Assembly: GCF_046105845.1 (NCBI RefSeq) | Contig: NZ_CP151004.1 | Reading direction: 5' to 3' (one strand) | Source: Escherichia coli | GTDB taxonomy: Bacteria; Pseudomonadota; Gammaproteobacteria; Enterobacterales; Enterobacteriaceae | Length of the DNA: 64,000 nucleotides | In this document: piece by piece, positions 42,401-48,279 of the stretch | Layout: each line of letters opens with the position of its first letter | Numbering within the stretch: position 1 is the first letter of the stretch | Notes under the pieces: generated by a model | Told to the model about the DNA's origin: nothing | Databases searched by the model: none | Seen by the model: the letters and a program-made list of their open reading frames with translations, nothing else | Translations under genes and position numbers: made by a program

Positions 42401-44041
42401 TCACACTGTAGCGAAACTAACTGGTTCACCAGCTCCGCGAGGTACTGCCGACACGGAATGTTTGTTCAGACGAAATACGTCCACCGCCTCAGCTAATCGT
42501 GCCGCCTGTTCTTCAAGGGACACCGCCGCCGCTGAGGCCTCTTCTACCAGAGAAGCATTCTGTTGCGTCACCTTATCCATTTCAGAAATCGCCTGGCTAA
42601 CCTGCGTTATGCCCCTACTTTGCTCATCCGAGGCGGCGGCAATTTCCTGCATGATATGTGTGACACTCGCGACGGCATCAACAATAGTGCTCATGGTTTT
42701 CCCGGCCGTGGCCACCTCATCCGATCCCAGGTCAATTAACCTGACTGATTCACTGATCAAGCCTTCAATCTCTTTCGCCGCCTGAGCGCTGCGGCTTGCG
42801 AGTGTCCGTACTTCGCTGGCGACAACGGCAAATCCACGCCCTTGCTCACCCGCTCGCGCGGCTTCAACGGCAGCATTCAGTGCCAGAATATTCGTCTGGA
42901 AAGCAATACTGTTGATGACGGCGGTGATCTCAGAAATTTTCTTCGAACTCGTGGAGATAGCGCCCATCGTTTTTACTACACCGGAAACCGTCTGCCCGCC
43001 ATTGCAGGCTTTAATAGAAGCCTCTTGCGCCAGTTTGCTGGCATGATGCGCGTTATCTGCATTCTGTTTCACCGTCGCAGTAAGTTGCTCCATGCTGGCG
43101 GCAGTTTGTTCGATAGCCGCCGCTTGTTCTTCGGTGCGAGATGACAGGTCCGCATTGCCAGCTGAAATTTCGCTGGTGCCACGATAAATCTCTTCCGCAC
43201 CCTGTCGAACAGTCCCTACTGTCATCCCCAGTGAATGCTGCATTTGCTGTAAATGACGACTTAAGCGACCGATTTCATTACGACCTGCCGGATCATCATT
43301 CATCGTCAGATCGCCACTGGCGATTTTTTCAATCCGTTGTGCGGCATGTTGCAGTGGACGAATGACAATCCGACGTAGCACCATAAATGTTATCAGTGTC
43401 ATGACCAGGGCAAGCACAAACGCGCCAATCATGAACATCCCACCCAGGCGGGTGCGCTGATGGGCCAGTTCCGCCAGTTGGTTGGCTCTGGTGCTACGTA
43501 TCTTAACGGCTTTGCTCAAAATATCGGTATAAGCATTATCCAGCGGTCGGATCTGCTCACTTTCATGATTGATAATCGCTTCAAACATGCCATTTTTGGC
43601 ATATTTCAACATCGGTTGCATACCCGTGATATAAGCCTGGAAGCGTTGATTTAATTCAGTGTCGAGGGCTTCATCAGCAGGTGTTTTCACCGACCGATTC
43701 TGATAAGCACGATACCCTTGCTGCGACTGTTTAATCTCCGATTCGGCTTGCGCAATATTTCGCTTCATTGCTTCCATTTCCGCAATACGACTCGCTGCCC
43801 CGGCCTGAATCATATTGACCCGGGCTGAACGCAAAAAATCTGAACTGTTCGCTAACCCGGTCCGAATCTCAATTTCCGCAGTAACATCCCGCTGATCGCG
43901 ATCGGCCTGCCAGAGGAAATAGCCAGCCAGAGCTGAACTTAATGCGAATAGAACTAAGATACCGCCAAGAATGCAGGCAAATAACGGAACCAGCCTGATG
44001 TGATGCAAAAAACCTAATCGCTGTGAGGGAGTTGTATTCAT
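42401..44041 (-). CDS. trg: methyl-accepting chemotaxis protein III (ribose/galactose sensor)
   Basis: 546-aa ORF: two TM segments, periplasmic domain, HAMP, conserved MCP signalling domain and methylation sites. Confidence 0.9.
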
Positions 44042-44329
44042 TACCGTTGTCTCTCTTCCAGGTTTACTCCTGATAGAAAGTCATCGGCACTTGACGGTAA
44101 TTTCTTACGACCAAAAACCTCTTTGCGTCACATTTTTACAACAATTATGGCAGAGAAGATTAATGCCATTGGAATGAAGAGAGTAACGAATGATTAAACT
44201 GGCTAAACCGAATGACGAAAAATTCTGGAAAACAGCACGCAATTTCGTCAGGTGATTATTTTCGTCCCTAAGGAAACCACATAGGATGCTCACGGGTGCC
44301 TGAGACTTTCTGTTTTCAGGCTAACCGGG

Positions 44330-44381
44330 AATCAGAAAGACGAAGGCCCCGACCGATATTTCTATCAACCGAGGCCAACGA

Positions 44382-44400
<19 letters not shown>
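44330..44400 (-). ncRNA. sokB: predicted Sok-type antisense RNA against the mokB/hokB leader (coordinates approximate)
   Basis: Inferred from hok/sok locus architecture: the antisense regulator overlaps the mok translation-initiation region (mokB ATG at 44382). Not verified at nucleotide level. Confidence 0.3.
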
Positions 44401-44589
<189 letters not shown>

Positions 44590-44653
44590 GGGCAAGCGCG
44601 GGGATTTTCCCCGCGCATCTGACTAGCGGATTCATTTTCTCATGGCACCCCTT

Positions 44654-44833
44654 TTACACTTCAGTAGTGCATGTTTTTTTCGATGCACTAATAGAACCAT
44701 CATTACAGACAAATTTGCCGCCTGCCGTACAGTGTGAGATCCCCCCTTTAGAACCAGAACAGGGTTTGCGCCCGGCATCGGCATAAAAGGAAACAAGCGC
44801 TCCCATAACCAAGATAAGTGCCAGTTTTTTCAT
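44654..44833 (-). CDS. ydcA: small secreted Cys-rich protein
   Basis: 59-aa [62 protein letters not shown]; signal peptide plus 4 Cys; SD (ggaggt) upstream. Below the track length cut-off, so hand-called. Confidence 0.65.
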
Positions 44834-45003
44834 ATAACCTCCATGGTTTATCGAATCTTATGTTCGATTTGAACGTTATACGCTGGTTTATTTTGATACC
44901 GTTGATGAGATCAAAGATCGGGTGAATTGATTAAAGATAAGCCAGATGGACGTATGGACCAGGATTATGGTTTTATTTGTCATACAAATAAATATAATAG
45001 GCG

Positions 45004-45067
45004 CTTCCGATGTAGGCCCGTATTCTTCGCCTGTACCACGGGTCGGTTTTAGTACAGGCGTTTTCTT
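45004..45067 (+). ncRNA. rydC: Hfq-dependent small RNA RydC
   Basis: Sequence cttccgatgtaggcccgtattcttcgcctgtaccacgggtcggttttagtacaggcgttttctt matches the RydC sRNA as I recall it, including the pseudoknot-forming 5' region and a 3' terminator hairpin (cgcctgtac...gtacaggcg + U-run); lies between ydcA and cybB. Confidence 0.75.
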
Positions 45068-45077
45068 TAAATATCCT

Positions 45078-45608
45078 TCAGGAACGTTTACGCGGCATCA
45101 TGCGTAGAAGTGTGTTGTCCTTCCAGAAATAATGGTGTGCCAGTGCAGCCGCAGCGTGCAACCCGATGACAAAGTATCCCATATTCGCCAGCGTTTCATG
45201 CCACGACTTTAAGCTATCAACCCGTTCGAAATTGGCCTCTGATGCATAAGGCATCGTCATACCAAACGCAAACCACGGGTTACCCCGGTTATACATCATC
45301 ACCAAACCAATCACTGGCAGCGCAATAAACAGGAGATAGATCACCAAATGTCCCAAATGCGCCAGTCCCGTCATCATCGGTTTTGGCTTAGGTATAATCG
45401 GCGGGGTTGGGTATTTCAGCCTTAACAAAAGACGAACCACCATCAGCACGAGAATTGTGATGCCACAGGAAACATGAATCATGTTGATGAGCGGCCGATC
45501 GCTACGTGGGAAGAAACCACGAAACTCCATTGCGCAATACGCTGCGATAACCAGCAAAAAGACCAGCCAGTGAATGCTGATTTGTAACCTTGAGTATTTA
45601 TTTTCCAT
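45078..45608 (-). CDS. cybB: cytochrome b561 (superoxide:quinone oxidoreductase)
   Basis: Track ORF 45078..45644; start at MENKYSRLQISIHWLVF... gives 176 aa; 4-TM di-heme cytochrome b with conserved His. Confidence 0.9.
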   Translation of the reverse strand: MENKYSRLQISIHWLVFLLVIAAYCAMEFRGFFPRSDRPLINMIHVSCGITILVLMVVRLLLRLKYPTPPIIPKPKPMMTGLAHLGHLVIYLLFIALPVIGLVMMYNRGNPWFAFGMTMPYASEANFERVDSLKSWHETLANMGYFVIGLHAAAALAHHYFWKDNTLLRMMPRKRS

Positions 45609-45796
45609 AACATTTCCTGCTTTAAAACAATTTGCCGTTAACATAACGAGCTTTTCTTAAAATTTCATTAAATATTGTTCACCCGTTTTCAGTACGTTAC
45701 GTTTCACGGCAAGAATGTAGATTGCCCATCCCGCCATCCTGGTCTAAGCCTGGAAAGGATCAATTTTCATCCGAACGTTCCTGACAGGAGAAGACC

Positions 45797-46798
45797 ATGA
45801 GTAAAGTTGGTATTAACGGTTTTGGTCGTATCGGTCGACTGGTGTTGCGTCGATTACTTGAAGTCAAAAGCAACATAGACATTGTTGCTATTAATGATCT
45901 CACTTCCCCAAAAATTCTCGCCTACCTGTTGAAACATGATTCAAACTACGGACCGTTCCCCTGGAGCGTTGATTTTACGGAAGATTCACTTATCGTTGAT
46001 GGAAAAAGTATCGCGGTTTACGCCGAAAAAGAGGCTAAAAATATTCCATGGAAAGCGAAAGGCGCAGAAATCATTGTCGAATGTACTGGCTTTTATACCT
46101 CCGCCGAGAAATCGCAGGCGCACCTTGATGCTGGTGCGAAGAAGGTGTTGATTTCCGCCCCTGCCGGTGAAATGAAAACCATCGTTTATAACGTCAATGA
46201 CGACACACTGGATGGCAACGACACCATTGTTTCCGTGGCGTCATGCACCACTAATTGTCTTGCACCGATGGCCAAAGCCTTGCACGACAGTTTCGGAATA
46301 GAAGTCGGCACGATGACGACCATTCATGCCTATACCGGCACTCAGTCACTGGTGGATGGTCCGCGAGGTAAAGATCTACGCGCTTCACGTGCAGCGGCAG
46401 AAAATATCATTCCCCACACTACAGGTGCGGCAAAAGCCATTGGTCTGGTGATCCCGGAACTGAGCGGCAAACTGAAAGGTCATGCGCAACGCGTGCCGGT
46501 GAAAACAGGTTCGGTGACTGAGCTGGTATCGATTCTCGGAAAAAAAGTGACTGCCGAAGAGGTGAATAACGCACTTAAACAAGCAACCACCAATAACGAG
46601 TCATTTGGTTATACCGATGAAGAAATAGTCTCTTCCGATATCATTGGCAGCCATTTCGGTTCGGTGTTTGATGCCACGCAAACGGAAATTACCGCCGTGG
46701 GCGATTTACAACTGGTGAAAACGGTCGCCTGGTACGATAACGAATATGGCTTCGTCACGCAGCTTATTCGCACCCTCGAAAAGTTCGCTAAACTCTGA
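45797..46798 (+). CDS. gapC: glyceraldehyde-3-phosphate dehydrogenase C, apparently intact
   Basis: Uninterrupted 333-aa ORF with NAD-binding GFGRIGR motif and catalytic SCTTNC motif; strong SD (caggag) upstream. Confidence 0.9.
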
Positions 46799-46803
46799 CG
46801 CGC

Positions 46804-46835
46804 AAAGGCGGAGGGGAAAACCTCCGCCTCTTTTA
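46804..46835. terminator. bidirectional intrinsic terminator between gapC and aldA
   Basis: aaaggcggagg-ggaaaa-cctccgcct hairpin flanked by an A-run and a T-run, between convergent genes. Confidence 0.7.
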
Positions 46836-46839
46836 CTCA

Positions 46840-48279
46840 TTACGACTGTAAATAAACCACCTGGGTCTGCAGGTATTCATGCAAGCCATGTTTGCCATCT
46901 GCGCCGCCAATACCCGATTTACGCCATCCGGCGTGGAATCCTTGCATAGCTTCGAAGTTTTCACGGTTGATGTAAGTTTCACCAAACTTCAGCCCTTTAA
47001 TGGCTTTCATCGCGACGTTCAGATTTTGGGTATAGAGTGATGAGGTCAGGCCGTAATCACTGTCATTAGCCATTGAGATAGCCTCTTCCAGCGTGTCAAA
47101 TGCGACCACTGGCAGCACCGGGCCAAAGGTTTCCTCGTGCATAATCGACATTTCCTGGCGAACATCCAGCAGCAATGTCGGCGGATAATAATATCCTTTC
47201 CCCTCTACCGCTTTGCCACCCAACGCCACTCTCGCCCCTTCTTCTACTGCGCGCGCCACTTTTTGCTCGACCCTTTCCAGCGCCGCGGCGTTAATCAACG
47301 GCCCCATCGCAATGTCGTTGCGTTCAGCGGGGTTACCAAATTGAACCGCCTGCATCGCTTCACCCAGCCGATTGACGAACTGATCATAAATGCCTTTCTG
47401 TACATAAACACGTTCTGCACAGTTACACACTTGCCCACTATTAATGACGCGTGAATCAACGATGGCTTTGACTGCCAGTTCAAGATCGGCATCGTCCATT
47501 ACGATAGCCGGTGCTTTACCCCCCAATTCCAGGCACACTTTGGTGATGTTTTTCGCCGCAGTCGTCATAATCTTTTCACCTGCAGAGACGCTGCCTGTCA
47601 TACTGACCATTGCGACCTTTGGGTTACCCGCCAGTTCTTGCCCAACGGTTTCACCACGCCCCAGAACAAGGTTAAACACGCCGCGCGGAAGGCCTATTTC
47701 ATCGACGATTTTGGCGAATGCAATCGCATTGTTTGGCGTAAATTCACTGGGTTTAATGACGATGGTATTACCGGTCAAAAGAGCGGGAGCCATTTTGCGG
47801 GCAATGAGGAAGAACGGGAAGTTCCACGGCAGAATGCCGGTAGTCACGCCAAGCGCACGTTTAAACAGAAGAATATTTTCTCCTGGACGATCGCTTTGAA
47901 TAATCTCGCCTTCATAACGCCGTGCCCACTCCGCCATGTAATCGATATAGTCCGCAGTAAAAGCCACTTCGACTTCAGCCAACTGCTGGATCTTGCCCCC
48001 TTCTTCAACAATCAGCGCACTGATTTCACTGGCGCGTTCGCGGATCCCGGCGGAGATTTTGCGCAACCAACTGGCGCGTTCAATAGCAGGCAACGCTTCC
48101 CATTCTGGTTGTGCACGTTCTGCTGCATCGATTGCTTTACGGGCATCCTCGGCCTGACCATCGGGAATGCGGGAAATGACCGCCTCTGTAGCAGGGTTTA
48201 CCACATCAATCCATGCGTCTCCACGCCAGGTAACAAACTGTCCATCAATATACATAGGATGTTGAACGGGTACTGACAT
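46840..48279 (-). CDS. aldA: lactaldehyde/glycolaldehyde dehydrogenase (NAD-dependent ALDH)
   Basis: 479-aa ORF with ALDH signature and catalytic Cys (GQVCNCAERV). Confidence 0.9.
   Translation of the reverse strand: MSVPVQHPMYIDGQFVTWRGDAWIDVVNPATEAVISRIPDGQAEDARKAIDAAERAQPEWEALPAIERASWLRKISAGIRERASEISALIVEEGGKIQQLAEVEVAFTADYIDYMAEWARRYEGEIIQSDRPGENILLFKRALGVTTGILPWNFPFFLIARKMAPALLTGNTIVIKPSEFTPNNAIAFAKIVDEIGLPRGVFNLVLGRGETVGQELAGNPKVAMVSMTGSVSAGEKIMTTAAKNITKVCLELGGKAPAIVMDDADLELAVKAIVDSRVINSGQVCNCAERVYVQKGIYDQFVNRLGEAMQAVQFGNPAERNDIAMGPLINAAALERVEQKVARAVEEGARVALGGKAVEGKGYYYPPTLLLDVRQEMSIMHEETFGPVLPVVAFDTLEEAISMANDSDYGLTSSLYTQNLNVAMKAIKGLKFGETYINRENFEAMQGFHAGWRKSGIGGADGKHGLHEYLQTQVVYLQS

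Follow-up and report, generated by a model that had tools for sequence, protein, structure and literature searches.

Does Escherichia coli possess a second functional glyceraldehyde-3-phosphate dehydrogenase (GAPDH) besides GapA, and is the broken gapC gene of K-12 the rule or the exception in the species? The question is raised by a gapC frame found in the 64,000-nucleotide stretch of E. coli DNA analysed here (contig NZ_CP151004.1), referred to below as the window. A sequence-only reading of the window had described this frame as continuous, described its K-12 counterpart as a pseudogene, and proposed that a second functional GAPDH may be encoded. On the analysis reported below, which is largely one of sequence, the window very probably encodes a GapC that is complete and able to catalyse, a type I phosphorylating NAD+-dependent GAPDH that is a paralogue of GapA and likely a conditional accessory isozyme.

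The gapC locus in the window

Both the list of open reading frames and the raw sequence show gapC running in one frame from its ATG through 333 codons to a TGA, with no internal stop (Table 1). The predicted product aligns without gaps and over its full length to a solved GAPDH chain, and hence there is no concealed frameshift. The uninterrupted gene described from the letters alone is thus borne out, and the features that had been listed with it were also found, namely the SCTTNC and GFGRIGR motifs (at aa 149 and aa 8-14, respectively) and a good Shine-Dalgarno (SD) sequence, AGGAG, 6 nt before the ATG. A search for a hidden frameshift or stop found neither, and the catalytic residues were present on alignment. 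The SD is kept across 17 Enterobacteriaceae in an alignment of the upstream spacer, and the terminator hairpin that follows the gene has a predicted fold of -19.7 kcal/mol (z = -3.6).

The gene order in the window is trg-hokB/sokB-cybB-gapC-aldA-ydcF-hrpA, and the order at gapC is the same in K-12, O157:H7 and strain 19KM1831. The window is 98-99% identical to several strains over 24 kb, there are no mobile elements near gapC, and the region is ordinary E. coli core genome. Across E. coli genomes the gapC region is 95-99.6% identical to that of the window. The gapC coding sequence is identical to that of 19KM1831 (product RefSeq WP_000048646.1), and the nucleotide haplotype is a rarer one, with only one of 5417 genomes sharing ≥99% identity over the 1.4-kb region.

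Several further features of the neighbourhood were recorded. Relative to 19KM1831 the window is a mosaic: identity is complete (100%) over gapC and the 3' portion of aldA (45840-47339) but 95-98% a few kb upstream, around 43800-44600, and this looks like a recombination patch in the sequence. When K-12 is the comparator, gapC is ~96% identical and its flanks ~98%, the extra differences being nearly all synonymous. A full-length match to the small RNA RydC lies at 45004-45067 (+), immediately beyond cybB on its 3' side (90.5 bits, gathering score 48), and a match to the sok antitoxin RNA sokB lies at 44294-44445 (+; 109.7 bits), adjoining the hokB toxin ORF (~44380-44550). The small overlapping yncP is annotated as frameshifted in the closest genome, 19KM1831, aldA is annotated as frameshifted in E. 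coli EC21Z-063, where gapC is intact, and strain SCPM-O-B-7615 carries an extra Hok-family toxin gene at the hokB region.

Table 1. Positions of gapC, its parts and its neighbours in the window
Feature	Position	Strand	Basis
cybB (cytochrome b561), divergent neighbour; regulatory spacer common to cybB and gapC	45078..45608	-	ORF list, annotated genomes
TTAACA-N19-TTTCAT, published gapC promoter hexamers; overlaps the most conserved intergenic block	45638..45668	+	Pattern match
Nearly invariant spacer block ATTGCC	45721-45726	+	Alignment
Nearly invariant non-coding element CTAAGCCTGG, ~45 nt upstream of the gapC ATG	45744..45753	+	Alignment
Shine-Dalgarno region ACAGGAG (AGGAG core)	45784..45790	+	Sequence
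gapC CDS, type I NAD-dependent GAPDH	45797..46798	+	ORF list, TIGR01534, PF00044/PF02800, PDB 7C5F
GFGRIGR codons, Rossmann-fold dinucleotide-binding motif	45818..45838	+	Alignment
Codon 39, AAA (Lys) in the window, TAA (stop) in K-12	45911..45913	+	K-12 alignment and genome census
Cys150 codon TGC, catalytic, within SCTTNC	46244..46246	+	Sequence and conservation
His177 codon CAT, catalytic	46325..46327	+	Sequence and conservation
A7 homopolymer, GGA AAA AAA, codons 248-250; site of the K-12 -1 frameshift	46540..46546	+	K-12 alignment
Intrinsic terminator, 9-bp G+C-rich hairpin then CTTTT, between convergent gapC and aldA	46806..46835	+	Terminator scan
aldA (aldehyde dehydrogenase), convergent, downstream of gapC	46840..48279	-	ORF list, annotated genomes

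The K-12 allele among E. coli genomes

In RefSeq, gapC of K-12 BW25113 is annotated as a pseudogene ('frameshifted; internal stop'), as the sequence-only reading had stated, and pairwise alignment located both lesions. The K-12 gene (gapC_1/gapC_2, b1417/b1416) occupies the corresponding locus, flanked by the same genes and with promoter spacer and terminator also in common with the window, and is 96.4% identical to the window gene at the nucleotide level. The 30 differences comprise two lesions, absent from the window, and 28 substitutions. The first lesion changes codon 39 (K39) from AAA to TAA at window position 45911, and the second removes one nucleotide from the A7 run, leaving an A6 run that reads GGA AAA AAG TGA and meets an immediate stop. 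Among the 28 substitutions only R18G, with the glycine in K-12, and I29V alter the protein.

In order to establish how common each state is, the region was compared with 5426 complete E. coli genomes, 5417 of which include the gapC locus. Codon 39 was typed using 31-mers centred on it, a megablast match requiring agreement at the central base, and was resolved in 5233 of the 5417. The K-12-type TAA was found in 1154 genomes and AAA in 4079, either in the background of the window (3711) or in that of O157 (368). For the K-12 A6 frameshift allele, at least 1035 genomes matched a 68-mer exactly, a lower bound because the 68-mer seed matched in only 3905 genomes. All seven of the non-K-12-type records examined have an annotated intact gapC, as does GPEC606. 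The length of the region match (1400 bp as opposed to 1401 bp) had been considered as a proxy for the frameshift and was dropped, as the indel in GPEC606 is intergenic and its gapC intact. Hence, an intact gapC is the majority state in E. coli, at ~75%. Five of the region matches are on records labelled as plasmids, which could be mis-assigned replicons or large plasmids derived from the chromosome.

Of 40 evenly spaced records among the 1154 with the TAA allele, ~70% are from sources outside the laboratory, namely humans, pigs, chickens, a dog, vegetables, fish, a frog or marine sediment, and gapC of a pig isolate from Canada and a chicken isolate from Korea is identical to that of K-12 at every base. 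The same null allele thus occurs without change in many isolates from humans, pigs, chickens and the environment, and K-12 shows a widespread natural polymorphism rather than an effect of domestication in the laboratory. Its pseudogene represents one of the naturally inactivated forms of gapC and does not represent the ancestral state.

Other routes to inactivation were also seen. In SCPM-O-B-7615, gapC and aldA are truncated in association with IS1A, and premature stops in gapC were found in Kosakonia oryziphila, in an Enterobacterales MAG and in Citrobacter amalonaticus, the assembly of the last showing one extra base (+1) in this A-run, which could be a homopolymer sequencing error. As this run is A7 in E. 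coli and A6 in most other genera, slippage should be somewhat more likely in E. coli. With null alleles in ~21% of E. coli genomes and stops in three of 80 other species, gapC must be dispensable in some lineages.

The presence of an intact gapC is already known and is the usual state of the species. Reports of the intact gene in natural isolates go back to 1998, the papers of 1996 and 1998 being cited in PMC10614358 and PMC2949598, and an intact GapC is also recorded in UniProt (P58072) and in crystal structures from 2020-2021. With the gene, the pseudogene status in K-12, the natural intactness, the activity and the structure all on record, the window carries little weight as a discovery. 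A modest refinement concerns the K-12 null allele, whose natural spread qualifies the older claim that laboratory strains "accumulate" gapC mutations.

Selection, family membership and activity of GapC

When one genome per species was examined, full-length gapC relatives were found throughout the Enterobacteriaceae, sharing 90-93% identity in Citrobacter and 84-89% in Klebsiella, Enterobacter, Kosakonia, Kluyvera and Leclercia. The gene is intact in 77 of 80 cross-species loci and is adjoined by a divergent cybB in most of the Enterobacteriaceae loci examined. In all of the 78 aligned GapC sequences the residues G8, G10, R11, G13, D34, S149, C150, T151, H177, T180, R198, T209, R232, N315 and E316 are invariant.

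Comparison of the window gapC with eight more intact alleles from E. coli and with those of E. albertii and one additional Escherichia species (Nei-Gojobori) gave dN/dS values of 0.01-0.04 at dS 0.10-0.82. Values this low across dS up to 0.8 are incompatible with neutral drift, and they argue against the view that gapC, though intact in the window, is physiologically idle, having no lesion yet, making no contribution to fitness and decaying as it has in K-12. That view gains something from the null allele in 1154 of the 5426 genomes, from the further routes to inactivation (the IS1-associated truncation and the stops in three other species), from the absence of codon bias in gapC and from the H-NS site reported in the spacer (PMC3946193). 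However, many genera have kept the gene together with the residues for catalysis and the neighbouring cybB, non-coding blocks upstream are conserved too, and we consider it very improbable that gapC is idle.

The predicted protein includes the two domains expected of a GAPDH, Pfam PF00044 (Gp_dh_N, aa 3-102) and PF02800 (Gp_dh_C, aa 155-313), and scores 446.7 bits against the NCBIfam equivalog model for type I GAPDH, TIGR01534 (cut-off 367.2), over model positions 1-330 of 330. It carries the NAD-selecting Asp34 and the phosphate-site residues Thr180, Arg198, Thr209 and Arg232 (GapC numbering), all of which align with their GapA counterparts. Against the models for Epd, TIGR01532 and NF010058, the scores were 276.5 and 279.8 bits, far under the curated cut-offs of 530.55 and 539, and hence GapC is not an Epd member. 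Against the model for the ArsJ-associated GAPDH (NF033735) the score was 307.3 bits (cut-off 450), and no arsJ gene was found in the gapC neighbourhood. GapC also falls below the cut-offs of the models for other GAPDH subfamilies. The divergent cybB, the convergent aldA and near-identity to annotated gapC genes place it in the cybB-gapC-aldA orthologue group.

The housekeeping GapA is likewise a type I phosphorylating GAPDH with the same domains, catalytic Cys and His and NAD-binding Asp. When its sequence was aligned with that of GapC, as the sequence-only reading had suggested, the two were 47% identical, with the catalytic, phosphate-site and NAD-site residues in correspondence. In contrast to gapC, gapA is at a different locus and has an extreme codon bias. 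The closest group outside the Enterobacterales, the type I GAPDHs of the Lactobacillales (e.g. Enterococcus), shares 68-72% identity with GapC over the full length and is thus nearer to it than is E. coli GapA, though these genes lack the cybB/aldA context; in the Lactobacillales this protein is the main glycolytic enzyme. PDB chains of the Streptococcus/Staphylococcus type such as 4QX6 and 3K73 match the window GapC at about 410-415 bits. Epd (GapB), the erythrose-4-phosphate dehydrogenase of gamma-proteobacteria, has the fold and the catalytic Cys in common with GapC.

GapC of E. coli O157:H7 (UniProt P58072) is encoded by the same gene at the same cybB/aldA locus, has the same catalytic and NAD-binding residues and differs from the window protein at two positions, I29V and N132K. 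Closer still is EcGAPDH1 (PDB 7C5F, 7C5G, 7C5I and related entries, about a dozen in addition to 7C5F), which is identical to the window GapC at 332 of 333 residues, the one difference, Val29 in place of Ile29, being conservative. This variant forms NAD-bound tetramers with a Km for glyceraldehyde-3-phosphate (G3P) of 0.73 mM and a high kcat, measured at pH 10 and 50 C, conditions that are not physiological; replacing the cysteine (C150A) abolishes its activity and H177A is ~8000-fold less active (PMC8615399). A literature search on expression or secretion of the GapC protein in EHEC returned nothing relevant, and for strains whose gapC is intact neither the protein nor a phenotype was met with as direct evidence. 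The proposal of a second functional GAPDH is supported by the sequence features, by purifying selection and by the crystallised, active I29V variant, and it very probably holds for the protein predicted from the window.

GAPDH paralogues have repeatedly been adopted for other roles, and GapC could be a protein of the GAPDH fold with a different main job, either as an Epd/GapB-like enzyme, a partner of ArsJ, an NADP-dependent gluconeogenic enzyme or a moonlighting surface protein, particularly as it has sub-threshold matches to these families and its nearest relatives outside the Enterobacterales (~70% identity) are those of the Lactobacillales, some of which have been reported to be surface-exposed. 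Such a role is very unlikely, as GapC passes the type I GAPDH cut-off and falls far short for Epd (276-280 bits, cut-offs 530-539) and the ArsJ-associated group (307 bits, cut-off 450), no arsJ is nearby, the NAD-specifying Asp34 is invariant, and an enzyme nearly identical to GapC has been reported to bind NAD and to act on G3P (PMC8615399). Finally, the K-12 frameshift site is a homopolymer, which is error-prone on some sequencing platforms, but that the frame in the window was restored by a miscalled base or similar assembly artefact, the true sequence being K-12-like, is hardly credible when the independent TAA at codon 39 is also absent, the coding sequence differs from that of K-12 at 28 other positions and is identical in an independently sequenced genome, and AAA at codon 39 is common to 4079 genomes.

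The spacer shared with cybB and the likely role of GapC

Published data place regulatory signals between gapC and cybB. Genomic SELEX with the RpoD holoenzyme detected promoters and an H-NS site in this spacer, and TTAACA-N19-TTTCAT was proposed as the gapC promoter (PMC3946193); a sigma-S ChIP-seq peak also lies within it (PMC4447067). Both hexamers of this pair are weak, and their spacing is 19 nt. As a simple scan of 45500-46950 for the sigma-70 consensus promoter found no match, the assignment of the gapC promoter rests on the published SELEX and ChIP data together with conservation.

An alignment of 17 Enterobacteriaceae revealed nearly invariant non-coding blocks at 45638-45768, far more conserved than their surroundings. 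One, TTAAAAnTTCATTAA, overlaps the published -10 hexamer, and the others are ATTGCC and CTAAGCCTGG (Table 1). These blocks may be sites for regulators shared by the divergent cybB and gapC. By resemblance of pattern, the spacer may also include a Cra-like half-site and, at the gapC SD, a CsrA-like ACAGGA. A structured leader that sequesters the SD was considered and dropped, the fold being weak and without covariation: the consensus fold of the gapC leader from 12 species has seven weak pairs and -2.7 kcal/mol with no compensatory change, and the pairing between leader and SD is a weak 4-bp CCUG/CAGG, also without covariation. An Rfam search of 44000-47000 found no family in the leader or the spacer blocks, sokB and RydC being the only matches and lying elsewhere. 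A longer cybB frame of 188 aa is available if the ATG at 45644 is taken as its start (45078-45644, -), the RefSeq form being 176 aa with its start at 45608. The shorter form is more plausible because the longer one would enter a conserved spacer block.

The effective number of codons (ENC) is 54 for gapC, similar to those of its neighbours aldA (51) and cybB (57), and 28 for gapA. The unbiased codon usage of gapC and the strong bias of gapA argue against a bulk glycolytic function for gapC. The published transcription data agree with a conditional role. The gapC transcripts are rpoS-dependent and increase under carbon limitation even in K-12 (PMC2759082; PMC4512719), and in EPEC gapC mRNA was detected and is CsrA-dependent (PMC6333774). 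According to the summaries in PMC2949598 and PMC1796617, Espinosa-Urgel & Kolter (1998) reported that the gapC promoter is preferentially active in fresh water and that the gene is intact in environmental isolates. From the codon usage and the published transcription, GapC is most likely an accessory isozyme whose expression is conditional, and it is unlikely to be a main glycolytic enzyme.

Transcription of gapC would start in the spacer shared with cybB and end at the gene's own hairpin terminator. Going by the GAPDH family and by the structures solved for the I29V variant, His177 would activate Cys150 for its attack on G3P, the hydride would pass to NAD+ bound in the N-terminal Rossmann domain, with Asp34 selecting NAD over NADP, and inorganic phosphate would then release 1,3-bisphosphoglycerate. 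The enzyme would probably be present at a low level, as an accessory isozyme of stationary phase, nutrient-poor conditions or (cool) fresh water.

A more far-reaching reading, which we regard as doubtful, is that gapC and cybB, the latter encoding cytochrome b561 of the membrane, have long been regulated together as a stress module in which GapC covers for GapA when the latter is limiting or inactivated, the K-12-type allele being a segregating loss-of-function polymorphism. GapC would then supply GAPDH activity under, for example, starvation, low temperature or oxidative stress. If this were true, the double-lesion allele, which roughly one fifth of the sequenced E. coli carry in a form that does not vary between continents or hosts, would mark lineages that no longer meet that niche.

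Whatever the role of GapC, K-12 is atypical at this locus. Hence, metabolic models and findings on the essentiality of gapA that were obtained from K-12 may not transfer to the ~75% of E. coli that have a second intact GAPDH gene.
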